DNA of 64,000 nucleotides from contig OY970292.1 in the NCBI GenBank assembly GCA_963716145.1, forward strand, positions 597,171 to 661,170, read 5' to 3'. The position numbers and the translations under genes are program-made. This document shows positions 14,925 through 59,419 of the stretch, piece after piece. Origin of the DNA: Candidatus Levyibacteriota bacterium (GTDB lineage Bacteria; Patescibacteriota; Microgenomatia; Levybacterales; UBA12049). Every line of letters begins with the position of its first letter. Position 1 is the stretch's first letter. A model generated the notes under the pieces. That model saw nothing but the letters and a program-made list of their open reading frames with translations. It searched no databases and was not told where the DNA came from.

Positions 14925-15066
14925 TTTTCAATTTAAAATTTGAAATAAAATACAAATGTTTAAAACTTTAAATTTAAAATATTGAAAATTCAATGAAAAT
15001 TGTCCATTCGGCAAGCTCAGGATCCTGAGTTAATCGAAGGAAAAACTGAAAATTAAAAATTGCCTT
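14925..15066 (+). repeat. Leader module copy C with an embedded palindromic 'ggcaagctcaggatcctgag' insert
   Basis: Same 5' and 3' ends as copies A and B. The middle is replaced by the palindromic motif. Upstream of atpC. Confidence 0.7.
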
Positions 15067-15318
15067 ATGGATCCAAAACTTCTTACAGTATCAGTTAAGG
15101 GAGCAAATCGTCAGGAATTTCAAGGTCTTGCAACGTCTGTAACCTCACTGAACAATAAAGGTAAATTTGACGTGCTCCCCTATCATGCAAATTTTATAAC
15201 CCTTATTAAGGACTATGTAATTATCCAACAGCAGGATAAAAAACAAATCACTTTTCCTCTCTCAACAGGAATAATAAAAGTCCAAGGAGATAAAGTTCAT
15301 GTGATAATCGGGGTTTAG
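15067..15318 (+). CDS. atpC: ATP synthase F1 subunit epsilon (N-terminal beta-sandwich domain only)
   Basis: 'FDVLPYHANFITLIKDYVII' matches the epsilon 'GILPGHAPL..' region. Last gene of the operon. Confidence 0.6.
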   Translation: MDPKLLTVSVKGANRQEFQGLATSVTSLNNKGKFDVLPYHANFITLIKDYVIIQQQDKKQITFPLSTGIIKVQGDKVHVIIGV

Positions 15319-15656
15319 TTACTTCTTCTCTTACGCAAAACTTACGCCTCTATAAAACTCCTGTGACAAAAAATATGCATGATAATACTTCATGAAAGGA
15401 GGAAATACAAATGGGGAAAGAGATAGGTTACGGTGATTCACTTACCTTTCAAAGCAGCTCTAAAGAACCTCAAAAAGTTTCCCGCAATGGAGATGAATCT
15501 CCGTCTACCGGTCAGTGGGGTGTAACCAGAATGTCTCGCGCACAGGCGGACCAGGATCGAGTCAGTCTGCCATCTACTGCGCCACCGTTGAATTTGAAAG
15601 GATTACCATTACCTGAAAATAAAGAACCTGATCGTCCTCCCGCTGGTTAATACCAA

Positions 15657-16379
15657 CTACTTCGGTTTGGCTATAACAATCAACCTCTTCCAAGTTGTGC
15701 CTGGAGGCCAGCAAGTTTGAAGCACAAGCTGTTGTTCTCCTGTCTGAGGGCGTGCAATGTGGGTTGTATCTTTTGCGTCTGCGATCATTGTTTTGGACAC
15801 TACGTAATCATAGCGCCTATTCTCAAAAAAGACAATTATTTGATCGCCTGCTGACAAGTTCTTAAGCAAATAAAACACAGCATTATAACGTCCGACATTC
15901 CACCAGTTGTCTGTTGAATGAGCGAAAAGATATACATTGCCGGCAAATCCGGGGAAAACGCTCCCCTTGGCGTGAGCAATTCCTTTTTGCAGAACCTGCA
16001 AAAATTCAGATGAGTTTTCCGGATCAACATTGGGATAGACTTTGGCGCTTGCCCCGATTTTGGGTATCGTAATACTAAAAGTCGTATCAGAGGGGATCAA
16101 AATTTGTTCTTTGGATCCAGCCAAAATTTCAGCAAAACCAGGACTTTTGGGAGTAGCTCCTTTTGCATTTTTAAGAACATCGCCAAAGCCCTGCTGCCGC
16201 ACCGCTTCCTCAGCTGATGCAACTTTAAAATGCACACCCCTGAATTGGATTATCTGGAATTGGGCTTCATAATAAAGAGCCGGCCCAAATGTAGCAGCAA
16301 CACCATAAAGACTAAAAAGAACCAAGAAATTTCCCAAGGATCTGGTGAGTACAAATTTGATAGCATCATTCCGCTTCAT
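15657..16379 (-). CDS. Sortase-family transpeptidase
   Basis: N-terminal transmembrane anchor; 'NVYLFAHS' (catalytic His) and 'LVLQTCWPPG..KR' (TLxTC Cys plus Arg). Confidence 0.6.
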   Translation of the reverse strand: MKRNDAIKFVLTRSLGNFLVLFSLYGVAATFGPALYYEAQFQIIQFRGVHFKVASAEEAVRQQGFGDVLKNAKGATPKSPGFAEILAGSKEQILIPSDTTFSITIPKIGASAKVYPNVDPENSSEFLQVLQKGIAHAKGSVFPGFAGNVYLFAHSTDNWWNVGRYNAVFYLLKNLSAGDQIIVFFENRRYDYVVSKTMIADAKDTTHIARPQTGEQQLVLQTCWPPGTTWKRLIVIAKPK

Positions 16380-16429
16380 ACAATTAGTATAAAGTATTTT
16401 TAGAAAGTATCAAAATGGGTTTCAACTTG

Positions 16430-16501: not shown

Positions 16502-16585
16502 ATATATTGTATTCTAGCATAGAAGAAAGTAGAATAAATGTTTTACAATTTCTCCAGCTTCAGCTATACTAACCTTCTGTAATTT

Positions 16586-17314: not shown

Positions 17315-17320
17315 GGTTAA

Positions 17321-17352: not shown

Positions 17353-17417
17353 TGTCATCTTTTATATACTTACTGTTTCCGGCCTACTCAAGAATATGTT
17401 ATAATCCAAAATAAATT

Positions 17418-18065: not shown

Positions 18066-18080
18066 TATCTAAAACGGAGT

Positions 18081-18622: not shown

Positions 18623-19897
18623 TTATAATTTTAACAGCGCTTCTAGTTTTTGTCTATCTTCAAAATTACCAATCAAAGCAAGATTAAGGGTGTTTTCGAT
18701 GAAAAACTCTTTTCCTGCCTGTTCTACCTCTTCTTTTGTGACGTTATCCAAGTGGGCCAAAATCTGGTCAGGATTTTCAATTTCGTTTTCCAAAAGCTCC
18801 TGATGTCCATAAAATCCTGCAACTGAATTGCTGTCTTCAAGCCCAAGAACAAGATGCCCCTTCAGAAATTCTTTTGCCTTTGCAAGCTCTTTATCTGATA
18901 ATTCCATCTTTCCACTCGCCACCTTACTATACTCTGAAAGAATTACTTCTATTGCTTCTACAACTCTTTTTGGGTCAATTCCGGCGTTTGAAACCAAAGT
19001 ACCGGCATCCGTGTACTCATCGGAATTGGATCTGATGTAGTAAGCAAGTCCTCTCTTCTCACGAACTTCGTGAAATAATCTGCTGGACATTCCCCCACCA
19101 AGTATTGCGGCTAAAACAGACAATGGATATTTTTTGGATGATTTAAGTGAAACAGTCCTTACTCCCAAGGCAATATGAATCTGTTCTGTTTTTTTGGTTT
19201 TTATAAAAACTGCAGGTTTTGTCTGGTTTTCGGAAAGCGCCAATGGCTTGCCGGTTGCAAACTGTTTCATTGAAGAGAAATATTTCCCAACCAATCCTTC
19301 GGCAAGCTCAGGATCGATGCCTCCGGCAACGACTACAGTCATGTTGTCAGCGCTATAAAGTCCTCCCATGTAGTCACGGAAATCCTGCTGTGTGATTGTC
19401 TTGATATTTTCCTTAGGTCCCGCGATATCCCATCCCATCGGGGTATCGCCATATAGCAATTCTTCGTACAAGTCCCCAAGTTTTCGCATCGGATTATCCT
19501 CAATCATGTTAATCTCCTCCATTATCACTCCCCGCTCCTTGTCGATTTCTACAGGATCGAGTTTGGAATTCTGGAGCATGTCTGAAAGAAGATCAAGAAG
19601 GGTCTCAAGCTTTGCTTTTGCCGCCTTAATGTAATAACCTGTTATTTCTTTGCCGGTAAAAGCATTGAATTCCCCTCCAATTCCATCGATTAATGAAGAA
19701 ATCTCCATTGCGCTTGGCCTTTTCTCAGTTCCCTTAAATGCCATGTGCTCAAAAAAGTGGGAAATCCCATTATTCTTCTTATTCTCATAGCGGCTACCTG
19801 CCCCAACCATGACTATGACTGTAACGCTTTCAAGGGAGGGCATGGGAACTGTTATTACGCGGAGACCATTGGGAAGGAGTGTGCGCTTAAATTGCAT
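18623..19897 (-). CDS. M16-family (insulinase/pitrilysin) zinc peptidase
   Basis: Inverted zinc motif 'HFFEHMAFKGT' (HxxEH). 424 aa. Confidence 0.8.
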   Translation of the reverse strand: MQFKRTLLPNGLRVITVPMPSLESVTVIVMVGAGSRYENKKNNGISHFFEHMAFKGTEKRPSAMEISSLIDGIGGEFNAFTGKEITGYYIKAAKAKLETLLDLLSDMLQNSKLDPVEIDKERGVIMEEINMIEDNPMRKLGDLYEELLYGDTPMGWDIAGPKENIKTITQQDFRDYMGGLYSADNMTVVVAGGIDPELAEGLVGKYFSSMKQFATGKPLALSENQTKPAVFIKTKKTEQIHIALGVRTVSLKSSKKYPLSVLAAILGGGMSSRLFHEVREKRGLAYYIRSNSDEYTDAGTLVSNAGIDPKRVVEAIEVILSEYSKVASGKMELSDKELAKAKEFLKGHLVLGLEDSNSVAGFYGHQELLENEIENPDQILAHLDNVTKEEVEQAGKEFFIENTLNLALIGNFEDRQKLEALLKL

Positions 19898-21167: not shown

Positions 21168-22640
21168 TTACACTCCTTGTCTGTTTGTCAGCTCTCTGAG
21201 GAAAAGATTGTAATCAAACTGGTTTACTGCTCCGTCATCATCCAAATCGGATAGCAAATTATTTGCTGCGGTGCAAGAGACGGCAGGTAGGAAATCAGAA
21301 TAGCATCCCATCAAAATATTGTAATCAAGGATATTAATTACATTGTCTCCATTAATCTCACCATTTATTAACACTGTTTGAGGCATTTGATTAGTTGTTC
21401 CTGCGGTTATTGTCTGAATGCCCGGAACTAAGGATTTTAAGAACTGGTTTGTCTTTACTTTTACCGTATATGCACCGGTTACAAAAGCGCTACCCATATC
21501 AATATTCCCCGTGAATTTGCCGGAAGTTGAATTATAGTTAACAGCTCCGTCTTTTGTTGCTACCAATTGGTTCTGAGCATTGAGCACTTCAACTCGTACA
21601 TTTCTTTGTGGGTGCAATGGGTCGGGATTTCCCCCTGATGCCGGATTCGCGCTATCCCCACCCTGACCTATTCCATGAAGAAGAAGAGTTAGGGACAAAG
21701 TTGTATTACCTGGAGCCGGAGTTGATGTTGGAGTGATTGTAGGACTTGGAGTAGTTCCTCCTTCAGCTCTAGTGTGATCGTAAGAGTTTGGGTTGCTGGC
21801 ACTTCCATCTGTGTGGCATATAGGATCTCCACCGTCAATTAAACCATTGTTGTTATTGTCTCTTGAGTCAGCGCAGGTTGCTCCGTTTCCGCCCTGTTCC
21901 CCAGGTCTTGTAGGGTCGTAACTGTTGGGATTATTTGGATTATTGTCTGTGTGACAGGTTGAATCCAAATTGTCTTTGAAACCATTGTTATCGTTATCAA
22001 TGTTGTCTGAGCATCTTGAAGGAGGAGTGGTTACCGTGGGATTGACAGTCCCTTCATTTCGCGTAGGGTCATATGGATTATTTAGATTTCCACCTGTGTG
22101 ACAAGCAGGATCCCCCGCATCAATCAACTCATTCTGGTTATTGTCAATTCCATCAGCACAAGTTGCAGGAGGTGAAGTGGGTGAAGGGGTGGGGCTCGGA
22201 ACTGTAGTAGGACTTGGTGTTGGAGTTGGACTTGGGATTGGAGTTGGGGTGATCCGCATACTTCCACACGCTGCTGATGAGCTGAGATTATTACCTGTGC
22301 CGTTATTGTTGCCGGTAAGCCCCTGATGAATTGTATTGTTGTTACCGGTAAGATTACCTATCATGCCAGCACACACTTCATTACCATGCCCTGTTAAGTT
22401 CCCTATATATCTTCCTGTAATCAGATTCCCGTTCCCATACATATTCCCTTGGAAATCCCCATTTACTGTACAATTGTTAACATGCAGATCGCTTGCTCTG
22501 TTGGGACAGGTAGTTTCCGCAGCATTTGATCTTGTTTCCTGTCTTTGCTGACTGACCAAAACACCGCCGAAAAGCCCAAAAACAAGCACTATCCCTACCA
22601 ATACGGGTAATTGTTTTCTGGAGAATAATTTTTTTAGCAT
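21168..22640 (-). CDS. Secreted Cys/Asp/Asn-rich repeat protein with C-terminal dockerin-like domain (paralog 1)
   Basis: N-terminal signal anchor. Three 'C(A/S)D.IDN..N..ID.GDP.CHTD.N.NNP.SYDPTR' repeats. Pro/Thr linkers. C-terminus 'INGDNVINILDYNILM...DLDDDGAVNQFDYNLF' looks like duplicated dockerin type-I Ca-binding segments. Confidence 0.6.
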   Translation of the reverse strand: MLKKLFSRKQLPVLVGIVLVFGLFGGVLVSQQRQETRSNAAETTCPNRASDLHVNNCTVNGDFQGNMYGNGNLITGRYIGNLTGHGNEVCAGMIGNLTGNNNTIHQGLTGNNNGTGNNLSSSAACGSMRITPTPIPSPTPTPSPTTVPSPTPSPTSPPATCADGIDNNQNELIDAGDPACHTGGNLNNPYDPTRNEGTVNPTVTTPPSRCSDNIDNDNNGFKDNLDSTCHTDNNPNNPNSYDPTRPGEQGGNGATCADSRDNNNNGLIDGGDPICHTDGSASNPNSYDHTRAEGGTTPSPTITPTSTPAPGNTTLSLTLLLHGIGQGGDSANPASGGNPDPLHPQRNVRVEVLNAQNQLVATKDGAVNYNSTSGKFTGNIDMGSAFVTGAYTVKVKTNQFLKSLVPGIQTITAGTTNQMPQTVLINGEINGDNVINILDYNILMGCYSDFLPAVSCTAANNLLSDLDDDGAVNQFDYNLFLRELTNRQGV

Positions 22641-22685
22641 GGATAATTTATGTATAATTGCTACCTAATTATAAGTAGAACAGAA

Positions 22686-23586
22686 CGGGTAAGCTTTGTC
22701 AAGAATAATGCTTATACTCCCTGCCTATTTGTCAGCTCTCTGAGGAAAAGATTGTAATCAAACTGGTTTACATGACCATCGTCATCCAAATCGGCTAACA
22801 AATTATTTGCTGCAGTACAGGAAACGGCAGGCGTAAGATCGGAATAGCATCCTATCAAAATATTGTAATCAAGGATGTTAATGGTGTTGTCTCCGTTAAT
22901 CTCACCATTTATCAATGTTGTTTGAGGCATTTGATTAACTCCTCCCGCAATTATATTTTGAATACCGGGAGTTAATGCTTTTAAGAACTGATTTGTCTTT
23001 ACTTTTATGGTATAAACTCCGCTTACGAGAGTAGTCCCCGCATCAACAGTTCCTGTGAAATTACCGCCAGTTGTACTGAAATTAACTACTCCGTCTTTTG
23101 TTAAGATCAGCTGGTTCTGAGCATTGAGCACTTCAACTCGTACATTTCTTTGTGGGTGCAGTGGATGTTGATTTCCCCCTGATCCAGGATTGGCGCTATC
23201 CCCCGCACTACCAATACCGTGAAGTAGAAGATTGAAAACCAGACTCGTGTTTCCGGGAACAGGTGTTGAGGTAGGAGTTCTAGTTGGTGTAGGCGTGAGA
23301 GTTGGCGGTGTGGTTGGTGAAGTCTCATTTCTACTAGGATCGTAAGAGTTTGGATTATTTGGATTTCCGTCTGTGTGGCAGATTGGATCTCCACCGTCAA
23401 TCACACCGTTATTGTTGTTATCTCTTGAATCAGCACAGGTATTCCCTCCCCCTTGCTCTCCCGGTCTTGTAGGATCGTAGCTATTGGGATTATTTGGATT
23501 ATTGTCTGTGTGACATGTTGAATCAAAACTGTCTTTGAAACCATTGTTATCGTTATCAATGTTGTCTGAGCATCTGGAGACGGGAG
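22686..23586. repeat. ~900-bp identical direct repeat (3' halves of paralogs 2 and 3, copy 1)
   Basis: DNA identical to 24298..25198. The two copies diverge at ~23587 and ~25199. Confidence 0.85.
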
Positions 23587-24253
23587 TGGTCACTGGAGGA
23601 GTTACTGTAATAGTAAGTCTAGGAGTTACTGTAGGAATAGAGCCTTCATTTCTGGTAGGGTCATAGGTATTTGGATTGTTCTGATTGCCATCTGTGTGAC
23701 AAGCCGGATCTCCACCATCAATCAACTCATTCTGGTTATTGTCAATTCCATCAGCGCAAGTTGCTGGAGGTAGGGTGGGACTGATAGTTGCGGATGGACG
23801 TACTCCGCATGGCGTGGAAGCATTTGTGATATTTCCTGTTCCGTTTATCGGGCCGCCAACTCCTCCATGAATTATGTTGTTGTTGCCGTTTATACCACCA
23901 TTTAGTCCGCCGCAGATGTCATTGCCATTGCCGCGAATAGTCCCGTTCATTCCTCCCATTATTATATTGTTGTCACCGGTAATGTTCGCCGGGAAGCCTC
24001 CCAATCCTCCACGAATTGTATTTCTACTTCCAAAAATACTGCCATTAAAGCCGCCATCAATAGTGCAGTCATCAGCGGTCAGATCCTGACCCGGTCCAAC
24101 AGTAGTGCAGTTTCCGGTTCCTCCGCGGCCTGCAGCGCTACTTCTTTGGTCCTGCTGCTGCTGACTAACCATCACCGCGCCGAACAGGCCAAAAACCATA
24201 ACAACACCTACTAGTATCGGAAGACTAGATTTTGAAAAAAGTTTTTTTAGCAT
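22712..24253 (-). CDS. Dockerin-domain Cys/Asp-rich repeat protein (paralog 2)
   Basis: Same architecture as paralog 1. The C-terminal ~295 aa are identical to paralog 3. Confidence 0.6.
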   Translation of the reverse strand: MLKKLFSKSSLPILVGVVMVFGLFGAVMVSQQQQDQRSSAAGRGGTGNCTTVGPGQDLTADDCTIDGGFNGSIFGSRNTIRGGLGGFPANITGDNNIIMGGMNGTIRGNGNDICGGLNGGINGNNNIIHGGVGGPINGTGNITNASTPCGVRPSATISPTLPPATCADGIDNNQNELIDGGDPACHTDGNQNNPNTYDPTRNEGSIPTVTPRLTITVTPPVTTPVSRCSDNIDNDNNGFKDSFDSTCHTDNNPNNPNSYDPTRPGEQGGGNTCADSRDNNNNGVIDGGDPICHTDGNPNNPNSYDPSRNETSPTTPPTLTPTPTRTPTSTPVPGNTSLVFNLLLHGIGSAGDSANPGSGGNQHPLHPQRNVRVEVLNAQNQLILTKDGVVNFSTTGGNFTGTVDAGTTLVSGVYTIKVKTNQFLKALTPGIQNIIAGGVNQMPQTTLINGEINGDNTINILDYNILIGCYSDLTPAVSCTAANNLLADLDDDGHVNQFDYNLFLRELTNRQGV

Positions 24254-24297
24254 AAATTAACTATATTAAAATTGGCCTAACTATAGTAGAACAGATA

Positions 24298-25927: not shown

Positions 25928-27658
25928 TTACATTTTTGAAGGAGCTTCTATTCCTAGAAGATTCAGGCCTTTTTTAATCACTTCTCCTGTTTTGGATGTT
26001 AGAGCCAAACGAAAATCTTTACTCCCCTCCTCGGCCTTTAAAATTTGATGTTTTTGATAAAAAAGATTAAAACCTTGAGCAAGCTCAAAAAGATATGTCG
26101 CTACAGCACTCGGGCTCAACCTCTCCGCAGCCTCAATGATTACATCGTCAAATTTTGCCAGCAAACGAAGTAGCTCTCTCTCCTCAGGTTCAAATTCTCC
26201 TTTGAAATTGGAAATTGGAAATTGGAAATTGGAAATTCCTGCTTTTAGCAGCACACTCTGTGTGCGAGCATAAACATACTGTATATATGGTCCTGAATTT
26301 CCATCAAAGCTAATTGACTCTTCCAAATCAAATGCAATCTCCTGCTGTGTCGAAACTTTAAGAAATGAATATTTTACTGCAGCGACTGCAACCTTCTCGG
26401 CAATAATTTTTTGTTCCTCTTTTGTATAGTCTGATGCATTTTTATCTAGAATATCAATTATTTCTTTTTTTGCTTCATCAATGAGCCAATCTCCCAATAT
26501 CACGTTTCCGGATCTTGAGTTCATTTTACCGTGTTTTAGCTTGACCCACCCATAAGCCAAATGTTTCTCCTTACCACGCGTCTCCGGAAAAAGCTGAGCG
26601 AGCGCTTCAAAAACAACCTGAAAGTATCCCGACTGTTCAGGACCCACAACGTGGATAATCAAATCAGGATTATTTTCTTCAAATTGCAATGGCCCGAGCC
26701 CCATATCCTTGCCTTCGTAGGTTGGATTTCCCTCACTCGTAATAAATACTCTGTCATGAAGACCAAATTTTTTGCCGGGGAAAATAATCGCCCCATCGCT
26801 TTTTTCAAAAACTCCTTTTGTAAGCCCCTTCAAAACATTTTCTTTACCGGTCTCATATACCTCACTCTCAAAATAATAGCGGTCAAAATGAGCGTAAACT
26901 CTTTTGTAAATTTGTTCAAAGTAATCAAGGCTCCACTGCCTAGTGGTTTGGTAAAGCTCCCAAATAGACTTGTCTTTTGCATAGATTTTTTTGTTGATTT
27001 CACCAATTTCTTTTTTCGCATCCGGATTTTCTTCATAAGCTTTACTGCCTGCTGCATACGCTTTACCCAATAAATTAATTTTCTGTTCTAAGTTTAATTC
27101 TGAATTCTGAATTCTGAATTCTGAATTCTGCAAAATGCCGTACAGGCATTTTGCAATATGCATTCCAACATCTCCCTGATAATTTCCGCGGACTACTTTT
27201 GCACCCACAGCCTCAAGTAAACGCACAATTGACTCGCCGGTCGCAATATTGCGCAGATGACCGATGTGAAACGCTTTGTGGGTATTTGGGTGAGCAAATT
27301 CAACCAATATTTTCTTACCGGTAAGAGAAGTTTTATTTTTTTTACTATCTAAGTCTGTCAAACTATCAATTAGTGTATCATTTGAGATCCAAAAATTGAT
27401 AAACCCCGGCTTTACGACTTCCATTTTTTCAAAAATCCTTAATTCTTTATTCTTACTTCTTAATTCTTCTGAGATTTCCTCCCCCAACTCCATAGGATTT
27501 TTACCAAGTTTTTTACCTGCAACCAATGCTATGTTACTGGAATAATCCCCATGTTTTGGATCAGCCGGATAGTCGACTTTGACCTCAATATCACCCAATC
27601 CTATTTTTTCCAGAATTTCACCTAATTCTTCTTTTATTGTTTGTTTAATCATAATCAC
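25928..27658 (-). CDS. argS: Arginine--tRNA ligase
   Basis: 576 aa. 'HIGHLRN' class-I motif. The C-terminal anticodon-binding domain ends in '...APSKM'. Contains two in-frame heptamer microsatellites. Confidence 0.85.
   Translation of the reverse strand: MIMIKQTIKEELGEILEKIGLGDIEVKVDYPADPKHGDYSSNIALVAGKKLGKNPMELGEEISEELRSKNKELRIFEKMEVVKPGFINFWISNDTLIDSLTDLDSKKNKTSLTGKKILVEFAHPNTHKAFHIGHLRNIATGESIVRLLEAVGAKVVRGNYQGDVGMHIAKCLYGILQNSEFRIQNSELNLEQKINLLGKAYAAGSKAYEENPDAKKEIGEINKKIYAKDKSIWELYQTTRQWSLDYFEQIYKRVYAHFDRYYFESEVYETGKENVLKGLTKGVFEKSDGAIIFPGKKFGLHDRVFITSEGNPTYEGKDMGLGPLQFEENNPDLIIHVVGPEQSGYFQVVFEALAQLFPETRGKEKHLAYGWVKLKHGKMNSRSGNVILGDWLIDEAKKEIIDILDKNASDYTKEEQKIIAEKVAVAAVKYSFLKVSTQQEIAFDLEESISFDGNSGPYIQYVYARTQSVLLKAGISNFQFPISNFKGEFEPEERELLRLLAKFDDVIIEAAERLSPSAVATYLFELAQGFNLFYQKHQILKAEEGSKDFRLALTSKTGEVIKKGLNLLGIEAPSKM
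26204..26238. repeat. Tandem heptamer (gaaattg)x5 inside argS, encoding 'GISNFQFPISNF'
   Basis: Perfect 7-bp tandem repeat that keeps the reading frame. Confidence 0.9.
27096..27130. repeat. Tandem heptamer (aattctg)x5 inside argS, encoding 'QNSEFRIQNSEL'
   Basis: Perfect 7-bp tandem repeat that keeps the reading frame. Confidence 0.9.
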
Positions 27659-30153: not shown

Positions 30154-30940
30154 TTAATGCTGCGCTAATAGGGTTTTCAACCCTGCCATCCGTAATTATT
30201 ATTTTCCCAATCCCTAGATCTAAAAGCTTACTACATTCCAAAAGTTTTCTCTTCATCCGCCCGCTAACAATGTTGACTAACTCATCTAAATTTCCTTTAT
30301 TAACCTCTTTAATCAGAGAACTCTCGTCATTGAGATCTTTCAAAATACCCGGTGCTTCTATCAGGAACAGGAGAACTTCGGATTTAAAATCAGTAGCAAT
30401 TTTTGAAGCAATCTTATCCCCGTCCACATTTATAACCTCTCCCTCCTGAGTAATCACAGGCGGAGTAATTACAGGAATTATTCCTTTGTCCAAAAATAAA
30501 TTGAGCAGGTCCAAATTAATACTTTCAACATTTCCCGTCAGATCATCTTTCACAACTTTTTTCTTATCTCCCTCAACAGTAATTAAAGCCTCATGTTTTT
30601 TGCCAACTATTAATCGCCCGTCAACTCCAGATAAGCCAATCGCGTTAACACCGGATTTTAATAACGACTCAACTATTTTTTTATTCGCAAGCCCCGCGTA
30701 AGTCATGTACATCAACTCAATCGTTTCGCGTGTTGTATAGCGGCTGGTCATTCCTGAGGGTAAAGTGAGCATCTTTTTTTCAATACCAAGCTTCTGGCTA
30801 TAGAAATCCAAATAATAATTTCCGCCGTGAATAATAATAAATTTTTTATCCTGAGCTTGCCGAATGGACTGAATAGCAATATCGGAACTTATTGACTGGA
30901 GGTTAAGTGATTTGCCACCGCCGATTTTAATAACTATCAT
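30122..30940 (-). CDS. argB: Acetylglutamate/[LysW]-glutamate kinase (amino-acid kinase family)
   Basis: 'VIKIGG', 'IIHGG', 'NVDGD' motifs. Confidence 0.75.
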   Translation of the reverse strand: MIVIKIGGGKSLNLQSISSDIAIQSIRQAQDKKFIIIHGGNYYLDFYSQKLGIEKKMLTLPSGMTSRYTTRETIELMYMTYAGLANKKIVESLLKSGVNAIGLSGVDGRLIVGKKHEALITVEGDKKKVVKDDLTGNVESINLDLLNLFLDKGIIPVITPPVITQEGEVINVDGDKIASKIATDFKSEVLLFLIEAPGILKDLNDESSLIKEVNKGNLDELVNIVSGRMKRKLLECSKLLDLGIGKIIITDGRVENPISAALNGGGTHIYES

Positions 30941-32852: not shown

Positions 32853-32930
32853 GTTAATTTTAAACCTTTCCTAATTCTCATAACGCAATTAAGCTTCACG
32901 TCATGATCCTGAGCTTGCCGAATGGACATA

Positions 32931-41640: not shown

Positions 41641-41690
41641 ATCACAATAAAAAAACCGTCTCTGTAAATATCTGATATTTAGATACTTAC
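41641..41690 (-). terminator. Rho-independent terminator / T-box terminator hairpin
   Basis: Minus strand: 'gaccgtccttgtaag...cagagacggttttttt'. The stem is ccgtc/gacgg plus an inner palindrome, followed by a T7 run. It sits just 5' of argH. Confidence 0.55.
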
Positions 41691-41905
41691 AAGGACGGTC
41701 ATTCTTTTACCGTGGTACCACCTTGTTTCTCCGCCAGCTGGCGGACTCATTTATCTTTTACAGTTTTGTCTCTGTAGAGCATTTTTTGCTCTCTGCGTTC
41801 TCCTTCTGAAACCTTGGTGAAAGAGGATCCCGGATCGCGACTTCGGTTTTCATCCCTCATAGCTTTAGCGACGTGGGACAAACGCATTTAATCTTTAATT
41901 GTTAA
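41691..41905 (-). promoter_or_regulatory. T-box-like leader upstream of argH
   Basis: Minus strand contains 'AACAAGGUGGUACCACGGUAAAAG' (T-box core AGGGUGGNACCGCG) immediately 5' of the terminator. There is an 'AGAGAG' element upstream. A possible specifier region 'GAAGGAGAA' contains the Arg codon AGG. Confidence 0.5.
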
Positions 41906-50630: not shown

Positions 50631-51884
50631 TCAAGAGGGATTTTTGCTTTTTGCTTCGGTTTTTGATTTTTTAGCACGTATGAAAACTATTAACCCTGCC
50701 AAAAGCAAATAGTACCCTATCCAAACAGCAGCTGATACAGCAGGAATTGTCAGAGTCCAGCCAAAATTGGCAAAATACGCGACTATTTTTTCGAAAAAGA
50801 AAAGGATGGGCTCACAGAGAAATAAGAAAACTTTTCCGAGTGGTTCAAAAACTATTCCCAAAATAACTCCAAGTGAGCCCAAAATCATAAGCACAGGCAC
50901 GGTCCAGAGAATAAGCGCGTTAACCAAAATTGACAGCAATCCATATTGCCCAAAAATTGAAAGAAGAATGGGAAGTGTGGCTATTTGCGCTGCTACAGTA
51001 GTCCAAACATCATCCAACAGGGAAAAGTTTTTGGGCGTTGGAAAGAGAGGCTTAATCACAAGAATTCCTAAAGTAGCGAGAAAAGACAGTTGAAACCCAA
51101 TATCTGTGACTAGAAATGGCGACAGCAGAAGCATGATATAACCGGTAAGAAAGACAGAAGCGAGGGCAAAGTTTTGCCTTCCCAGTAGGCTTGCTGAGAA
51201 AGCAAGGATACTCATGATTGCAGCTCTGACTATAGAAGGCTCAAAACCGGCCAGGAAAGCATAAAAAACAATTCCAAAAATCGCTATAGTAAGTGCTATT
51301 TGCCTTTTGAAAATTACCCCAAGAATAGCTATCAATGCGCTCGCTACAAACGTCACATTCATGCCGGATGCCGCAATTACGTGAATTACCCCAACACTTC
51401 GCAGTTGGAGCAAAAAGTTTTGCGGCATGTTTTGATTACCTCCGAATATAATTCCGTTCAATAGACCTGCTGAGGCTGTAGGAAGATTATCTTGGAATAA
51501 TTTTGTAGCTTTTCTTCTTACGTAGGTTGCTGCGGATGTAATAAAATTTTGCTCAGTATGATCTATTTGGAGAGCTGGAGACTTAATTTTGTTAAAAATG
51601 TGACCTTTGTAATTATTTTGTGAAATAACTCCCTCAATTTTAATTCTGTCTCCGTATTGATAAATCGGAGATAGTCCTGTAATTATTGTGATTCTTTCTC
51701 CATTACCATTTTTTACCCGGAATTGCTGATGACCGTAGATGATTTGGGGCTCCTCTGTCAAGCGGGTATTAAATTTTATTTTCTGCCCCTCCGCATAGGA
51801 TTCTTGATTGATATTAAAAAGTATCAATCTTAAAATCAGAAAAATCAATAGAATTAATAGGACTATTATATAATTTCTTCTCAT
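50631..51884 (-). CDS. comEC: ComEC/Rec2-family DNA-uptake channel (competence domain; no beta-lactamase domain)
   Basis: 'GVIHVIAASGMNVTFVASAL' and 'EPSIVRAAIMS' competence-domain motifs. 417 aa. Confidence 0.75.
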   Translation of the reverse strand: MRRNYIIVLLILLIFLILRLILFNINQESYAEGQKIKFNTRLTEEPQIIYGHQQFRVKNGNGERITIITGLSPIYQYGDRIKIEGVISQNNYKGHIFNKIKSPALQIDHTEQNFITSAATYVRRKATKLFQDNLPTASAGLLNGIIFGGNQNMPQNFLLQLRSVGVIHVIAASGMNVTFVASALIAILGVIFKRQIALTIAIFGIVFYAFLAGFEPSIVRAAIMSILAFSASLLGRQNFALASVFLTGYIMLLLSPFLVTDIGFQLSFLATLGILVIKPLFPTPKNFSLLDDVWTTVAAQIATLPILLSIFGQYGLLSILVNALILWTVPVLMILGSLGVILGIVFEPLGKVFLFLCEPILFFFEKIVAYFANFGWTLTIPAVSAAVWIGYYLLLAGLIVFIRAKKSKTEAKSKNPS

Positions 51885-53148: not shown

Positions 53149-53820
53149 TTAGTAAACCGATATCTTGTCTTTTATCTTCTCAAATACACTCTGTCCGACC
53201 GCTTTTTTACTGACTAAGTCCTCAATTTTTTCATACGGCCTGTTGTTTATTATCTTCCCTGAGGTTACCGGGCCAACTCCCGGCAAACTGTCAAGCTGGA
53301 CAGCGCTTGCAGAATTGATGTTGATGGTCCCGCTGTTTGAATCCCCCACCGCGCTTGAGTCGCCGGTTAATCCCTGCGCGATATTTGTTGATCCGCCAAG
53401 AGGAGAAGCCGTATCGCCAATAAATGGAATATAAATTTTTCCTCCATCCACCACTTTTGAAGCTAAATTTAACCCTTTGGAAACTTTTTCCCGATCTGCT
53501 TTATCCGATAACCCACCTGCCGCGATCAAAGCATCCTGAATCCTGGCATCTTTCTGCAGTTTATAAACTCCGGGACTTATCACAGCTCCCTCAACATCAA
53601 GTGTGATTTCAGAAGCTTTAGTTTTTGCTGCCGCGACATCAGCAACTTCCGCAGTGTCTGCTGCTCCTTCTGCCAAAATATCCTGATTTTGCTTATTGTG
53701 ATTTACGGATGTTATCAGACCATATAGCAAGAATGCCAATCCGAATACTCCTAGTAGAATGGGAATCCAATATTTTCTAAGAATTGGGGCATATTTTTCC
53801 TGAAGTTCTGAGAAATCCAT
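53149..53820 (-). CDS. comEA: ComEA-like DNA receptor (transmembrane anchor, SLBB domain, C-terminal helix-hairpin-helix)
   Basis: C-terminus 'INSASAVQLDSLPGVGPVTSGKIINNRPYEKIEDLVSKKAVGQSVFEKIKDKI' contains HhH motifs. Confidence 0.75.
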   Translation of the reverse strand: MDFSELQEKYAPILRKYWIPILLGVFGLAFLLYGLITSVNHNKQNQDILAEGAADTAEVADVAAAKTKASEITLDVEGAVISPGVYKLQKDARIQDALIAAGGLSDKADREKVSKGLNLASKVVDGGKIYIPFIGDTASPLGGSTNIAQGLTGDSSAVGDSNSGTININSASAVQLDSLPGVGPVTSGKIINNRPYEKIEDLVSKKAVGQSVFEKIKDKISVY

Positions 53821-53861: not shown

Positions 53862-54383
53862 TTATTGTCTTACTACTCTGACTGCTTCCGCCCGGCCTTT
53901 AAGTGTTAATAGTTTTTTTCCAACTTCTATTTTTGCCTTACCCGTCCAATAGTCACCACCATCGCTAGCTATTAAGGGGTTTGTAGCCTTTTCTCCGGGA
54001 ACTAAGTTTTGTCCTAACAAATTAAATTCATTTTCTACTGAACGGTAGTTTTTAGATGATCGTCTCTTTGCTACCACTCCTGTGAGTTCATGCTCTCTCC
54101 GGATAGAATTGAGATGCGGAATTACTTTGGGTAATGACAAAGCAGAATGATCAGTAGCTTCTATAATCCCCCTATCTTCCAATAATTGCGCTTGGTGACC
54201 TATAACTTCCAGTTTTAAATCTCTGGAAGCCGGATCTGCTTCAACCCAATCCCAAATTGCTCTCCACCTTCCAGTTTGAGCCGCTTGTCTTTCCTCTTTA
54301 CTTAAGCCCCCCCCCAGGGCTGGTCTGGTATCTGCTGACATAGCTGGAATTATAAACTTATGGTCTTTACATGTCAATAACAA
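53862..54383 (-). CDS. Hypothetical protein (173 aa; GC-richer; start probably the internal Met at ~54338)
   Basis: ORF only. Overlaps the leuS stop by 17 nt. Confidence 0.35.
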   Translation of the reverse strand: MLLTCKDHKFIIPAMSADTRPALGGGLSKEERQAAQTGRWRAIWDWVEADPASRDLKLEVIGHQAQLLEDRGIIEATDHSALSLPKVIPHLNSIRREHELTGVVAKRRSSKNYRSVENEFNLLGQNLVPGEKATNPLIASDGGDYWTGKAKIEVGKKLLTLKGRAEAVRVVRQ

Positions 54384-57228
54384 AATTTAGAACTTTTCCC
54401 TCAATATAAATTGCTTGTTTAATATTTTTTCCTTCTAGGAATATAGCCACCTTCTGATCTTTTCTGGCCATTTCTTCTATTTTGGCTTTATCTTTACTTT
54501 CTGAAGACGGAACCTCAAGCATTCCTCTTAATTTTCCATTGACCTGAACCGGAATCTTGACTGTATCCGCAACCAGATACTTTTTATCATGCTTTGGCCA
54601 GGGACTTGTATGGATAGACTCAAATCTTTGATCTTTGATCTTTGATCTTTGATCTTTGAAGATTTGTTGAAACAAATCTTCTGCCATGTGCGGTGCGAAA
54701 GGCGCGAGAAGCTTGAGGTAAACTTCCGCTTCCTCCTGACTAACAGAATTCTGCTTACTCAGAAAGTTGTAATAAGTCATAAGATGGGCAATCGCGGTAT
54801 TAAACCGCAGGTTTTCCATCTCCTCAGTCACCAATTTTATGGTCTGATGCATCATCCGCAAACCATTATTGGAAATTGGAAATTGGAAATTGGAAATTGG
54901 AGCTTCCGAAAAAAGCTTCCAGATCTTTTTGAGGAAGCGATGCATACCCTGAACGCCTTCATCGCGAAAATCCCCTTCTTGGCTAAATCGTGCCATAAAA
55001 TGGAGATACATCCTGAGAGAATCTGCACCGAACTTCTTGATATAAAGATCAGGACCTACCACATTACCTTTGCTTTTACTCATCTTTGCTCCGTCCTTAA
55101 TTATTAAACCGTGGGCAAAAAATCGGGCAAATGGTTCTTCAAAGCCTATCTTACCCAAATCTTTTAGGAACATGGTGATAAACCGCGCATACAAGAGATG
55201 AAGAACCGAATGCTCGGCCCCTCCTATATACATATGTACCGGCAACCAAGCCAGCCGCTGGCTGGAATTGCCAATTCCTGCCTTGCCGGCAGGCAGGTCT
55301 AATTTCAAATTTCCAATTTGTTTTGAATTTTTGTCATTTGTATTTTGTATTTGTTTCGGATTTAGTGCTTCGGATTTCGGATTCAGCATTGGAAACGGTA
55401 TATCATCTTGATCCGTTGCCAAATATCTCAAGAAGTACCAAGCAGAATCAAGAAATGTATCTGATACATCAGTCTCTCTTCTGGCTGGATGACCACAGTG
55501 AGGACATTTGACCTCAAAAAACTCAGGATGATTGGCAAGGGGAGAATTGACTGCCTCACCTTTGGAATTCTGCTTTGCAGAACCAAGTGGTTTGAAATCT
55601 TCAATATACGGAAGCTTAACGGGAAGATTCTCCTCTGGAAACCAGCCACTCATTTCGGAAAACTCGGAAGACTCAGATGATCGGTTTGTCTGATTTTCAG
55701 ACTTATCAGATTGTCTGACTTTCTGGCCTGCTGAGTTTTCTGAGTGTTCTGAAGTAAACCAGGATAAACCTTTAGTTGCGCACTTCTCACAATAAATCAT
55801 CGGGATCGGCGGTCCCCAGTATCTTTGCCTCGAAATCAGCCAATCACGAAGATGATAAGTGGTTGTTTTGTCCCCAAATTCTTTCTCCTTGATAAACTCA
55901 AGCATTTTTGCCTTGGCCGCAGCATTTGTTAATCCATTAAATTCGCCAGAATCAAATAATTCGCTCTTGTCGGCAAATTTTGTTTTAATTTCCGGGTAAT
56001 CCCAGAAGCCGTCTTTCTCGACTTTTGCTCCCTGAACACCTTCTTTTGGCTTAACAACCGGTTTTATCGGCAAACCAAACTTCTTAGCAAATTCATGATC
56101 ACGAGCATCATGGCCTGGAACACCCATAACAGCACCTGTTCCATAACCCATCAAAACATAATCCGCTACCCATAGAGGAACTTTTTCACCATTAAAAGGA
56201 TTAATCATATAGGCTCCGCTGAATACTCCTGTCTTTTCTTTACCTTCACCGGCTCTTTCTATATCTGACTTATTTTTAGCTTGACTTATATAGTCATTGA
56301 CAGACTTGATGACCTTTTCATCCTGAACTTGTTTCAGGATCTGCTGTACCAATGGGTTTTCCGGAGAAATAACCATAAATGTTACACCGTAAATCGTATC
56401 AATTGCCGTAGTAAAAACTTCAACTTTGAACTTTGAACTTTGAACTTTGAACTCGATCCGAGCCCCTTCGGATCGTCCTATCCAGTTTCTTTGGGCAATT
56501 TTGACCTTTTCAGTCCAGTTTAGACTATCTATATTACCTAATAAACGATCCGCGTATTTGGTGATCCGGAAAAACCACTGCTCTAAATTCTTCTTTTCAA
56601 CAACAGAACTACATCTTTCACACTTCCCGTCAATTACCTGTTCATCTGCCAGAACCGTTTTGCAGGAAGGGCAGAAATTTACCGGAGATTTTTTTCTGTA
56701 TGCCAGGCCTTCTTTAAAGAGTTGAACAAAAAGCCACTGAGTCCATTTATAATAGTCGGGTTTGTAAGTCTCTACCGTTCTTCCCCAATCAACCCCTATG
56801 CCGGCTTCTTTGATCTGTCGGTAAAAATTTTTCTCAGTAACCTGAGCAAGTGTCATTGGGTTCTTACCAATTTTAAGGGCATAGTTTTCGGCATGAATTC
56901 CAAAGCCATCCAGACCAAATGGTTGGAAGACGTTGTTCCCCTGCATTCTCTTAAACCGTCCATAGATATCAACTCCGGCGAATGTTCTCACTCCTCCGAT
57001 ATGCAATCCTTCGGCTGATGGGTAGGGAAACATCATTAGATTGTAAAAAGGCCTGAGTGGTGAGCCAGTCGAACCATCTTGTCCTGAGCTTGTCGAAGGA
57101 TTAGCAGACTCGAGGTCCGGGTGATAAATTTCTTCTTTTTGCCAAATAGATTGCCATTTCAGCTCAATCGTTGCAGGATCGTACTTGTTTATGGCTAAAT
57201 TTTGCTGTTTTTTGTCTGTTTTTTTCAT
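54367..57228 (-). CDS. leuS: Leucine--tRNA ligase
   Basis: 953 aa. 'FPYPSAEGLHIGG' (HIGH region) and 'KMSKSKGN'. Carries four in-frame simple-sequence insertions. Confidence 0.9.
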   Translation of the reverse strand: MKKTDKKQQNLAINKYDPATIELKWQSIWQKEEIYHPDLESANPSTSSGQDGSTGSPLRPFYNLMMFPYPSAEGLHIGGVRTFAGVDIYGRFKRMQGNNVFQPFGLDGFGIHAENYALKIGKNPMTLAQVTEKNFYRQIKEAGIGVDWGRTVETYKPDYYKWTQWLFVQLFKEGLAYRKKSPVNFCPSCKTVLADEQVIDGKCERCSSVVEKKNLEQWFFRITKYADRLLGNIDSLNWTEKVKIAQRNWIGRSEGARIEFKVQSSKFKVEVFTTAIDTIYGVTFMVISPENPLVQQILKQVQDEKVIKSVNDYISQAKNKSDIERAGEGKEKTGVFSGAYMINPFNGEKVPLWVADYVLMGYGTGAVMGVPGHDARDHEFAKKFGLPIKPVVKPKEGVQGAKVEKDGFWDYPEIKTKFADKSELFDSGEFNGLTNAAAKAKMLEFIKEKEFGDKTTTYHLRDWLISRQRYWGPPIPMIYCEKCATKGLSWFTSEHSENSAGQKVRQSDKSENQTNRSSESSEFSEMSGWFPEENLPVKLPYIEDFKPLGSAKQNSKGEAVNSPLANHPEFFEVKCPHCGHPARRETDVSDTFLDSAWYFLRYLATDQDDIPFPMLNPKSEALNPKQIQNTNDKNSKQIGNLKLDLPAGKAGIGNSSQRLAWLPVHMYIGGAEHSVLHLLYARFITMFLKDLGKIGFEEPFARFFAHGLIIKDGAKMSKSKGNVVGPDLYIKKFGADSLRMYLHFMARFSQEGDFRDEGVQGMHRFLKKIWKLFSEAPISNFQFPISNNGLRMMHQTIKLVTEEMENLRFNTAIAHLMTYYNFLSKQNSVSQEEAEVYLKLLAPFAPHMAEDLFQQIFKDQRSKIKDQRFESIHTSPWPKHDKKYLVADTVKIPVQVNGKLRGMLEVPSSESKDKAKIEEMARKDQKVAIFLEGKNIKQAIYIEGKVLNFVIDM
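54624..54658. repeat. Tandem heptamer (atctttg)x5 inside leuS, encoding 'FKDQRSKIKDQR'
   Basis: Perfect tandem repeat. Confidence 0.9.
54871..54900. repeat. Tandem heptamer (ggaaatt)x4 inside leuS, encoding 'PISNFQFPISN'
   Basis: Same unit and same peptide as the argS repeat at 26204. Confidence 0.9.
56422..56453. repeat. Tandem heptamer (aactttg)x4 inside leuS, encoding 'FKVQSSKFKVEV'
   Basis: Perfect tandem repeat. Confidence 0.9.
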
Positions 57229-57619
57229 TTTTTGCTTATTTAATCATTTTTTGCCGAAATTCTTTGTATTATCTAAAGTATACCACACAAAAAAAATATA
57301 AAAAAGTAGCTTAAATTTCCCGAATTAAGCAAGTTTTGCTAGCCCTGTAGTTAAATTAGCGAATTAGCTTCATATCTTATGTTGTATCATTTGATCTCTT
57401 TAGAGTAGGTTATTTTGAACCTAAAAAAAATAATTGGTAAATTAATAAGTAATTATTTGATAAATAACGGTAAAATATAGTCCTGTAGGTTTTTTAGCTC
57501 TCTTTAACTATTTGCTAATTGTTATTTGCAAATTGTCGTAGACGGTTTGTCTTTTCGGACTAAATAAACTAACATTAAAATGCCGATTGCCAATTTTAAT
57601 TTGAAATTTAAAATTCGAA

Positions 57620-58375
57620 ATGAAGCATAAATTTAAAATGTTTAAAAATTTAGTAATTGAAAATTCACTGAAAATTGAAAATTGTAAATTGAAAATTCTT
57701 ATTATTTGCTTATTTGCTTATTTGCTTATTTGCTTATTCTCACCAAAAGCCTTTGCGTCGACTTCCTCAAACAACAATTACAATATCGATTTGCAAGACA
57801 TAGATATTAATCCGGAAAGGTCTGGAGTGGCCCCCCAACCCTACCAGATGGTTGCTACTGAGCCGCTAGATAAGACACCCGACATTACCTTCGGTAACTC
57901 GGCAATAACTTTTTCAACAGACAATAATCTTATTGATTTTGGGATACTGTCTCCGGCTAATCCTGTTGCCAGAACCGTCAATTTATCTATAATAAATGCT
58001 CAAACGCAGTATCAGCTTTTGGCATTTGAGGATCACCCGCTGTCAACAGGAAGCACCATAATTCCCGATACGACTTGCGAGGATGGGCAGTGCTCGGAGA
58101 TAAAAGAAAGCCAATGGATCAACAATTTAACTTACGGATTCGGATTCCGCTGTGACGATATCACAGACTCAGCGTGTATTGGATTTTCAACTGATAATAA
58201 CTACAAGCAATTTGCAGACAGTGCCAAGCAGGAAAAACAGCAGGCAATAATCACAAGCTTGCTAAATTATGGAGATAATAAGGCTAAGCTTACCTTTAAA
58301 TTAAATGCTGCAGGAACCCAAAAACCCGGGGTTTACACTAATACAATCACCTTTATAGCCGTACCGAATTATTAA
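57620..58375 (+). CDS. Secreted hypothetical surface protein (251 aa)
   Basis: Signal peptide encoded partly by a (gcttattt)x4 repeat at 57702..57738. Cys-containing mature domain. The true start is probably downstream of 57620. Confidence 0.45.
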   Translation: MKHKFKMFKNLVIENSLKIENCKLKILIICLFAYLLICLFSPKAFASTSSNNNYNIDLQDIDINPERSGVAPQPYQMVATEPLDKTPDITFGNSAITFSTDNNLIDFGILSPANPVARTVNLSIINAQTQYQLLAFEDHPLSTGSTIIPDTTCEDGQCSEIKESQWINNLTYGFGFRCDDITDSACIGFSTDNNYKQFADSAKQEKQQAIITSLLNYGDNKAKLTFKLNAAGTQKPGVYTNTITFIAVPNY

Positions 58376-58408
58376 TGTGTATATAGTATTTATTGTCGTT
58401 GATATAGT

Positions 58409-59419
58409 ATGAAAAGCGCAAACTTCAAGCTTCAAATTTGGGTTATTTGTTTATTGGGTTATTTGTTTATTGGGTTATTCTCGCAAGCTAAGGCTCAAGC
58501 GGTTAGCTTGCGGGTTTACCCTTCTCTAATAAAAATCAATGCCGAGTCTCCAAGCGATCTTAACACAAATATAAATATAGAAAACTTGTCAGACAAAGCG
58601 GTCGAGATTGAGACCCAAATTAAATTATTTAAAACACAAGAAAAAGAAAACGGTCAGGTTGAATATTTAAAAAGTAGTGAAAATCCAAATGAAATTTTAA
58701 ATAGAATACAAATTCTTAGTAAGGATAATGTGATTACAGGACTGAGTCTTGGCCCAAAACAAAAGACGTCTTTAAAACTCAAAATTTCACTAAATGAAAA
58801 TGATCTTGGTAATGACTATTACTTCTCAGTCATATTTATAACCAAATCAAAAGCTTCTCAAGTACAAAATGGTTCCGCCGCATCAATTCAAAGTAGTTTC
58901 TCCAAAATCAATATGGGCGTTGCGGCAAACGTGTTATTGTCAGCAGGGTCTGCCCATTCGACAAGCTCAGGACAGACTTCAGCCGCAATTGAAGAGTTTT
59001 CCTCTCCCCAATATGTTGAAAAAGGACCGCTGCCTTTTACTATCAAGATTCACAATAACGGATCAACCTATATTAGCCCCAAAGGGAGGATAGAAATTAC
59101 CAACATGTTCGGGCAAAGGATTGGCAAGGTTGATCTGCCCGCTCAAAATATTCTGGCTAATAGCAGCAGGTATCTTGCTACGCAAGATCAACTTATAACT
59201 TATAACTCATCACTTATAACTCCGAAGGCTGTTTGGCCTGAAAAATTTTTACTTGGATTTTATAAATCTACCTTAGTAGTTGAATTATCTGATAAAGGAC
59301 CAACGCTTGACAAAACAATTCAATTCTTTGCCTTTCCATCTAAATTCATATTGGTACTAATTATTGCTATAGTAATATTTTTGCTAATCAGAAGAAGAGT
59401 AAAGCAAAAAATGCTATAA
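58409..59419 (+). CDS. Cell-surface protein with signal peptide and C-terminal transmembrane anchor (336 aa)
   Basis: Signal peptide encoded by a (gggttatttgtttatt)x2 repeat at 58440..58480. C-terminus 'FILVLIIAIVIFLLIRRRVKQK'. Confidence 0.5.
   Translation: MKSANFKLQIWVICLLGYLFIGLFSQAKAQAVSLRVYPSLIKINAESPSDLNTNINIENLSDKAVEIETQIKLFKTQEKENGQVEYLKSSENPNEILNRIQILSKDNVITGLSLGPKQKTSLKLKISLNENDLGNDYYFSVIFITKSKASQVQNGSAASIQSSFSKINMGVAANVLLSAGSAHSTSSGQTSAAIEEFSSPQYVEKGPLPFTIKIHNNGSTYISPKGRIEITNMFGQRIGKVDLPAQNILANSSRYLATQDQLITYNSSLITPKAVWPEKFLLGFYKSTLVVELSDKGPTLDKTIQFFAFPSKFILVLIIAIVIFLLIRRRVKQKML

Follow-up and report, generated by a model that had tools for sequence, protein, structure and literature searches.

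In Nostoc punctiforme and its relatives, the small dispersed repeats SDR1-8 described by Elhai and colleagues in 2008 reportedly consist of units of ~21-27 nt that form hairpins with compensatory changes; they are said to lie often within tandem heptamer repeats, to be nested or compound and recently mobile with no associated transposase, and to have been proposed as the smallest mobile elements. Uptake sequences, such as the Haemophilus uptake signal sequence (USS) and the Neisseria DNA uptake sequence (DUS), occur at ~1 per kb, with both orientations equally frequent. REPINs are inverted doublets of repetitive extragenic palindromic (REP) sequences that can be folded as one long hairpin or two small ones (Bertels and Rainey, 2011; PMC3116915). 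Rickettsia palindromic elements (RPEs) are in-frame palindromic insertions of ~150 bp (100-150 bp), found only in Rickettsia, that occur in unrelated housekeeping genes at surface-exposed positions and leave the proteins intact (reviewed in PMC10969869). A further report describes site-specific insertion of SDR5 (PMC4390886). Here we describe a recurrent motif in a 64-kb stretch of DNA (~40% GC) from a Candidatus Levyibacteriota bacterium, referred to below as the window and numbered from its first letter. We propose, with a probability of roughly 60%, that this motif is the core of a very small, non-autonomous dispersed repeat family that was recently mobile. This Microgenomates lineage of the Candidate Phyla Radiation (CPR) has repeatedly gained copies in the recent past, in AT-rich spacers, heptamer arrays and protein-coding genes.

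The motif is far more frequent in the window than its composition predicts. The degenerate 15-mer TTCGRCARGCTCAGG has 7 exact matches in 64 kb, against 0.28 expected; the 18-mer TTCGGCAAGCTCAGGATC, allowing up to 3 mismatches, has 7 (4 on the plus and 3 on the minus strand), against 0.03 expected and with none of 100 shuffles reaching 7; and a 21-mer form has 5, against 0.00. The recurrence had been noticed in a sequence-only reading of the same DNA, and it stands above base-composition expectation (7 copies against 0.03-0.3, never matched by shuffles). When the copies are aligned with 60-nt flanks, the likeness is confined to ~20-24 nt and the flanks are unrelated. Scanning with the 13-nt loop TTCGRCNNGCTCA alone returns the seven copies together with a second unit in leuS. 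Five of the seven copies are inside open reading frames (ORFs), and the density of 0.11 per kb (7 per 64 kb) compares with ~0.065 per kb in 123 kb of DNA from relatives. The features discussed below, including one empty site that is filled in the closest relative, L128, are as follows.

7399..7425, plus strand: monomer TCC-TTCGGCAGGCTCA-GGACAAG in ORF 7046-8389, sense frame 'FPSAGSGQV'.
15002..15041, plus strand: inverted dimer of 39-40 nt, GTCC-A-TTCGGCAAGCTCA-GGATCC-TGAGTTAATCGAA-GGA, in the atpD-atpC spacer.
19295..19315, plus strand: monomer lying antisense to the M16 peptidase gene (18623-19897, minus), reading 'DPELAEG'.
27096..27130, minus strand: perfect (CAGAATT)x5 heptamer array in the ArgRS gene, the empty site for an insertion in L128.
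30847..30874, minus strand: monomer in the LysZ-type kinase gene (30122-30940, minus), reading 'IQSIRQAQD'.
32853..32930, minus strand: spacer of ~77 nt between lysW (32931-33122) and lysX (31986-32852), missing in L128.
32903-32929, minus strand: unit 1 of the lysW-lysX spacer, ATGTCC-ATTCGGCAAGCTCA-GGATCAT.
32878-32906: unit 2 of the lysW-lysX spacer, degenerate and inverted, TCATGACG-TGAAGCTTAATTG-CGTTATGA.
57055..57099, minus strand: 45 nt inserted in frame close to the N-terminus of leuS (54367-57228, minus), reading 'PSTSSGQDGSTGSPL'.
58948..58977, plus strand: monomer with an 8-bp imperfect stem, GTCTGCCC-A-TTCGACAAGCTCA-GGACAGAC, reading 'HSTSSGQ'.

All six sites listed in the sequence-only reading carry the motif when read individually, the perfect palindrome CTCAGGATCCTGAG is located at 15016-15029, and the peptides given for the copies, GIDPELAEGL, QSIRQAQDK, PSTSSGQDGS and HSTSSGQTSA, were read correctly. 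The list was incomplete, as a seventh copy lies at 7402-7419 (+) in ORF 7046-8389 and further units are present in leuS (57061-57073) and as reverse-type second arms (15025-15041 and 32878-32906). Two assignments had to be changed: the copy at 15006, placed in an ATP-operon leader, is in the spacer between atpD (13551-14924) and atpC (15067-15318), and the gene labeled argB encodes a LysZ-type [LysW]-aminoadipate kinase (3u6u, E = 1.9e-65).

Comparison with relatives and with paralogous spacers shows that most of these copies are insertions. In the LysZ-type kinase gene, 18 nt (30857-30874) encode six extra residues that are found only in the window and are absent from all aligned orthologs. 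With the junction marked by a slash, the empty site of L128 (85% identical) reads GAT ATT GCA/ACT CAG GAT, and the filled site of the window reads GAT ATT GCT ATT CAG TCC ATT CGG CAA GCT CAG GAT; the insertion re-uses CTCAGGAT (30848-30855, on the 3' side), which was already at the empty site. The 45-nt segment of leuS, singled out earlier as an obviously extra stretch, indeed has no counterpart in most of 25 Microgenomates orthologs, and the motif falls within ~14 residues that are extra relative to Thermus thermophilus LeuRS. This segment consists of two direct units, CC-TTCGACAAGCTCA-GG and GG-TTCGACTGGCTCA-CC, the second of which (57061-57073) is degenerate. Empty sites read GCC AAA/AAG CCT TTT in L123 and GCT AAG/CGG CCA TTC in L124 and already hold CCTTT or CCATTC. 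At the position filled in the window, L120 and L122 have copies that have diverged and decayed. Across orthologs from other Microgenomates, insertions reading 'SSGQ', 'RQAQD' and 'FGKLR' are found at several distinct LeuRS positions, a pattern indicating that the gene was hit repeatedly and independently.

The polarity is reversed in ArgRS, where the relative L128 is filled and the window is empty. There, a 24-nt hairpin-unit insertion (CCCATTCGGCTGGCTCAGGGCAAG, 'THSAGSGQ') splits a (CAAAATT)n heptamer array that is intact in the window. The copy at 58948..58977 lies in a variable loop of a secreted or membrane protein (gene 58409-59419), ~5-7 residues longer than in orthologs, and in L099 a dimer is found in frame inside a P-type ATPase, just ahead of its GDGINDAPALA motif. 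Spacers have gained copies as well. The atpD-atpC dimer is a clean 39-nt insertion, given that three AT-rich paralogous modules in the window (8775-8855, 10440-10525 and 13475-13555) lack exactly those 39 nt, and a filled module of 86% identity sits at a non-homologous locus of another genome, between frr and a rseP-like gene. In L128, lysW and lysX are one base apart (TAA C ATG), compared with the ~77-nt spacer of the window and its two inverted units.

The copy in the M16 peptidase gene has a different history. The protein is 424 aa long in nearly all of 120 orthologs and aligns to solved M16 structures without gaps, and the motif occupies a hypervariable 7-residue patch at equal length, with no insertion or deletion. 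At this position the closest ortholog (91% aa identity) reads GAA TCA GAG CCA ACC GAG ACA, which is identical to the motif at 12 of 21 positions, and the motif itself is absent. A 45-nt tract including the motif is identical in the L126 ortholog (83% aa and 74% DNA identity) and is the longest identical run in the gene. The same gene pair has another identical run of 38 nt elsewhere, so the shared tract is weak evidence, and we downgraded it as proof of recombination. The earlier suggestion that the motif can land in ORFs without disrupting them, for which a comparison of orthologous proteins had been proposed, therefore holds for the insertions in LeuRS, LysZ and the surface protein and fails for M16, where the copy is an equal-length replacement.

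Of the motif's six reading frames, five are open and one, in antisense, contains a stop. The HSASSGQ-type reading is used by the copies at 7402, 57083 and 58957 and by many LeuRS and ArgRS orthologs; other readings are IRQAQD (LysZ), PFGKLR (some LeuRS orthologs) and, in antisense, PELAEG (M16). In the window, 4 of 5 ORF copies are sense-oriented, and in leuS and neighbouring genes of relatives 7 of 7 are on the leuS strand. Peptide tolerance is the simplest explanation for this bias, since the SSGQ frame is benign and one antisense frame carries a stop.

Across instances, the conserved part of the unit is a 13-nt core, TTCGRCNNGCTCA, and ~3 base pairs that covary (TCC/GGA and variants) close it; both an oriented alignment and the repeat list show CC before and GG after nearly every copy. 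The monomer has 20-24 nt, (T)CC(A)TTCGGCARGCTCAGG(ATC / ACAAG), with two sub-types at the 3' end, ...CTCAGGATC and ...CTCAGGACAAG. DNA totalling 1.1 Mb yields 32 unbiased instances, among which the three closing pairs change together, as TCC/GGA, CCC/GGG, TGG/CCA, TCG/CGA and GCC/GGC. Closing cells are paired in 72% of cases, against 55% in shuffles and 30-42% in slid controls, and double changes at the closing pairs number 16 against 7.2 expected, a value equalled by 0 of 500 shuffles. Complementary flanks of at least 3 bp accompany 37 of 119 exact 18-mer matches in reference genomes, against 3.5 expected.

The dimer is a constant 39-nt inverted module, TCC(A)TTCGGCAAGCTCAGGATCCTGAGTWWATCGAAGGA, equivalent to a monomer with an inverted unit placed before its GGACAAG tail. 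It is identical in 14 low-GC contigs at non-homologous loci with unrelated AT-rich flanks that resemble heptamer repeats. The second arm of the dimer always reads TGAGtwwaTCGAA, never complementing the first exactly, so that an asymmetric internal loop is conserved. The arms are inverted and make up the whole element, and monomers have no terminal inverted repeats. Only the dimer folds, and modestly (-6.5 kcal/mol, z = -1.9). Its orientation relative to neighbouring genes (11 sense, 3 antisense) shows no significant bias (p ~0.06). An Rfam search of the window returned only a tRNA at the gathering threshold and nothing overlapping any copy at E up to 5, and a terminator and promoter scan of the atp spacer found no terminator. 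Mimicry of a tRNA T-arm or D-arm, a hammerhead core, an integron attC site, a Tn3 inverted repeat and a diversity-generating retroelement (DGR) were each considered and set aside as a misfit on inspection of the letters.

The element is not specific to this genome, and the same core occurs in many phyla. Among the matches listed, the nearest named relatives are Microgenomates/Patescibacteria (e.g., Levybacteria and Daviesbacteria), and the exact 18-mer is found in many CPR groups, Omnitrophota, Elusimicrobia, Planctomycetota, Chloroflexota, Acidobacteriota and Proteobacteria. Many of these copies are preceded by CC and have a partner arm. In cultured Comamonas, Sphingobium and Novosphingobium, megaplasmids carry up to 21 copies in unannotated spacers; the Comamonas unit is a 33-nt hairpin, CCGTCCATCC-TTCGACAGGCTCA-GGACGAACGG, located in spacers, one of which gave nothing meaningful against Rfam. 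The INPHARED phage collection has no motif match, and IMG/VR has 12 single matches only, by a rough estimate a few-fold above chance at most and no enrichment; on these grounds a phage-borne element was ruled out. Our literature search found no paper with the motif's DNA or peptide words in a relevant context.

Insertion lengths vary (18, 24, 39, 45 and ~77 nt), usually preserving the frame, and there is one equal-length replacement. The sequence-only reading had proposed searches for target-site duplications and for a cognate transposase, HNH or GIY-YIG gene, and both came back negative: no common length or sequence was found at five junctions (LeuRS, LysZ, ArgRS, dimers and the atp spacer), and a Pfam scan of 20 window ORFs detected no transposase, HNH, GIY-YIG or HUH domain. 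Apparent duplications in LeuRS (CCTT..CCTT) and LysZ (TTCAG..CTCAG) are parts of the motif itself, and the L128 ArgRS insertion has none. In LysZ, LeuRS and M16, the junctions overlap bases that matched the motif beforehand.

We infer that spread would be a copy-and-paste process templated on another copy, via a single-stranded DNA or RNA hairpin, and that copying would be anchored by microhomology on short target stretches already resembling the motif. In genes, the survivors would be those that keep the frame and avoid the sole stop-containing frame, the others being removed by selection, and surviving copies would occupy variable surface segments. Such templated, motif-anchored copying would explain the variable insertion length, the lack of clear target-site duplications and the overwriting in M16. 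The obvious candidate enzymes are a reverse transcriptase or an HUH/Y1 (RAYT-like) transposase that recognises the hairpin and acts in trans.

Several observations weigh against a recently mobile repeat family. Single units form no stable hairpin in this AT-rich genome (z ~0 to +1.7), so we claim none for monomers, and the covarying pairs number only three. Where the context is AT-rich or made of heptamers, direct repeats at the flanks carry no information, and the microhomology, seen at three or four junctions only, could be chance or alignment ambiguity. Neither the 20 window ORFs nor the called genes of L120-L128 include a transposase, HUH, reverse transcriptase or nuclease gene. The M16 copy, without a change in length, is not predicted by a pure insertion model. 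Finally, a selfish repeat confined to one lineage would not usually have its loop conserved across phyla, and this conservation hints at a function or a universal partner.

Among other explanations, an artefact of chance or codon usage, in which a favoured peptide or oligonucleotide recurs through composition, has a negligible probability. It could draw on the ~60% of the 119 reference 18-mer matches that look like ordinary coding sequence ('FGKLRI') without complementary flanks, mostly in high-GC genomes; however, the window count is unreached by shuffles, the copies are read in four frames and also occur in non-coding DNA, and insertion polymorphism against relatives refutes it for the window copies. 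A DNA-uptake-sequence-like element, favoured by competence and accruing transposase-free through mutation, biased uptake and homologous recombination, is improbable. Most copies are true insertions of 18-77 nt and not point-mutational conversions, the density of 0.11 per kb is ~ten times below the figure usually quoted for USS and DUS, and the core is spread over many phyla, cultured Proteobacteria among them, whereas known uptake sequences are family-specific. What speaks for uptake is the presence of ComEA and ComEC genes in the window, which adjoin leuS in relatives too, and the occurrence of copies on both strands, within ORFs and, between genes, as an inverted pair. The M16 copy would also fit, having arisen from a motif-like proto-site without length change; its 45-nt tract, shared with a 74%-DNA ortholog and missing in the closest one, is consistent with patch exchange, an argument weakened by the second identical run of 38 nt.

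A strict REP/REPIN family, in which inverted dimers replicate via a single-copy RAYT (Y1 HUH transposase) and monomers are decayed or broken remnants, would account for the dimer, a discrete 39-nt module that joins two inverted units and keeps the same boundaries at many loci, and for monomers and dimers side by side. The REPIN definition and its two alternative folds match the anatomy (PMC3116915), target-site duplications are lacking, as in IS200/IS605-type transposition, and the Comamonas units are 33-nt hairpins in spacers. We nevertheless consider this explanation unlikely, because 5 of the 7 copies in the window lie within genes, monomers in ORFs match the consensus as closely as dimers do, and at least the LysZ monomer is a recent insertion, which is unexpected if singlets are immobile relics. 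Moreover, the loop and not the stem is the conserved part, the units lack a conserved 5' GTAG-type tetranucleotide, the 20 window ORFs and the called genes of the relatives retrieved showed no RAYT, and REP families are normally lineage-specific whereas this loop is shared across phyla. That last property might instead reflect a functional cis-element, an RNA or single-stranded DNA hairpin with a protein-recognised loop kept by selection, with the ORF copies as tolerated by-products. Conservation of the 13-nt loop while the closing pairs covary, the constant second arm of the dimer (TGAGtwwaTCGAA) with its asymmetric internal loop, the 11 sense against 3 antisense dimers and the sense orientation of ORF copies (4/5 in the window, 7/7 on the leuS strand in relatives) all point this way. 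We give it little credence: close relatives differ in where copies lie (LysZ, ArgRS and spacers have gained them), Rfam gives no match up to E = 5 and a terminator-like tail is lacking, a single unit has no significant folding energy, the ORF sense bias is explained by peptide tolerance and the dimer bias is not significant (p ~0.06).

If units of 20-40 nt are truly mobile, as the proposed repeat family implies, they would be among the smallest mobile sequences known, and essential enzymes of streamlined CPR genomes (LeuRS, ArgRS, LysZ and the P-type ATPase) would have been altered repeatedly in frame. Repeat insertions of this kind would produce protein length variation and spurious or confusing gene calls in metagenome-assembled genomes, where the signatures HSASSGQ, IRQAQD, PFGKLR and PELAEG could be used to flag them. 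Conservation across phyla points to either a mobilising enzyme of broad host range that has so far gone unrecognised or a cellular partner that is itself conserved. As the same loop is present in cultured Comamonas and Sphingobium, the mechanism is open to experiment, which is rare for CPR biology. A broader proposal, which we regard as speculative and rather doubtful, is that of a pan-bacterial, ultra-small module written by a template-directed, microhomology-anchored process that inserts or overwrites 20-40 nt, including in essential genes. If so, it would be a natural analogue of oligonucleotide-directed editing, involving a novel enzyme or a widely shared host pathway, and short linker peptides would be continually added to CPR proteins.

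Other repeats were observed in the same genes and spacers. Perfect or near-perfect heptamer arrays of ~5 copies (GAAATTG, AATTCTG, ATTTGAA, ATCTTTG and others) lie inside essential ORFs at the positions given here.

26204-26237, 27096-27130 and 27434-27468: heptamer arrays in ArgRS.
37048-37079: heptamer array in CarB.
54624-54659, 54868-54901 and 56422-56453: heptamer arrays in LeuRS.

They are translated, for example as 'ISNFQFPISN' and 'KDQRSKIKDQR', and orthologs have other heptamer-derived peptides at the same LeuRS positions. LeuRS also has two further insertions of ~46 residues relative to T. thermophilus (residues 485-529 and 614-658), which are low-complexity, repeat-like and sporadic among orthologs. 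A second palindromic word rich in GC, ACCTGCCTGCCGGCRAGGCAGG, has two copies where 0.00 are expected, at 7677-7698 (+) in ORF 7046-8389 ('DLPAGEAGI') and at 55277-55298 (-) in a 46-residue LeuRS insertion ('LDLPAGKAGIG'); it looks like another repeat family with the same behaviour. The AT-rich module of ~80 nt (...AAATTCAATGAAAAYTGAAAAYTGAAAATTAAAAATT...), found at 8775-8855, 10440-10525, 13475-13555, 14950-15070 and 57596-57700, is placed directly before start codons, between ATP synthase genes and before ORF 57620, and may be a shared promoter or 5'-UTR element.

Elsewhere in the window, ComEC is encoded at 50631-51884 and a ComEA-like protein, assigned by synteny, at 53149-53820, and this leuS-adjacent order is kept in L120 and L122-L124. 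Small genes for 23S_rRNA_IVP proteins (PF05635, the family of DGR Avd proteins) occur in L120 (589-960), L123 (10442-10804) and L128 (1658-2062) at varying sites, in the carA/carB gap in L128 and after comEA in L123, and are absent at those places in the window. At both ends (1-8400 and 60300-64000) there are very large repetitive ORFs of ~49% GC, compared with 40%, with dozens of 'GNVGIGTT' repeats; they resemble tail-fibre or surface proteins, and ORF 7046-8389 has a weak Peptidase_G2 match. Three tandem paralogous genes (~490-513 aa) occupy 21168-25865, where two 300-nt stretches (22694-22993 and 24306-24605) match at 100%, suggesting recent duplication or gene conversion. A T-box-leader-like match at 41688-41869 (-), below the Rfam gathering threshold (45.9 bits vs 93; E = 6.6e-7), lies upstream of the argininosuccinate lyase gene (40365-41627), in the interval between it and an AcrB-family gene (41945-45277).

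Set beside the described systems, the repeat shares with the Nostoc SDRs a 20-24-nt monomer whose closing pairs show compensatory changes, copies in heptamer arrays (the L128 ArgRS gene and dimer contexts), nested dimers, and recent mobility with no associated transposase found. It differs from them in sequence, in its occurrence in CPR and many other phyla rather than in one cyanobacterial subgroup, the heterocystous forms, and in the prominence of in-frame residence in essential genes, the inverted dimer and the cross-phyla loop. Because the host is a CPR bacterium, SDR membership by descent is unlikely. Like REP sequences and REPINs, it is a short dispersed repeat far above its chance count (7 vs 0.03-0.28 expected), with inverted doublets alongside singlets and target-site duplications not seen. 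Unlike them, it has 5 of 7 copies in ORFs, with relatives' copies in leuS, its neighbours and ArgRS; its loop and not its stem is conserved, a GTAG-type 5' motif is missing, several phyla carry it, and a monomer inserted recently.

In common with RPEs, insertion occurs in frame and adds a conserved peptide without destroying the protein, whereas the unit is only 20-45 nt, the host is different and one copy overwrites. [quoted passage not shown] The likeness to USS and DUS lies in an over-represented oligomer on both strands, in ORFs and in inverted intergenic pairs, in the encoded ComEA and ComEC, and, for the M16 copy only, in an ORF origin without length change; the differences are a density ~ten times lower, an origin mostly by insertion and a cross-phyla core. 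Defining features are thus missing for REP (extragenic location), MITEs (target-site duplication and size) and USS (density and substitution origin). In behaviour, the element appears most like the Nostoc small dispersed repeats, REP/REPINs and Rickettsia RPEs, with no demonstrated membership in any of these, and what is unusual here is its routine residence in essential CPR genes combined with a loop conserved across phyla.

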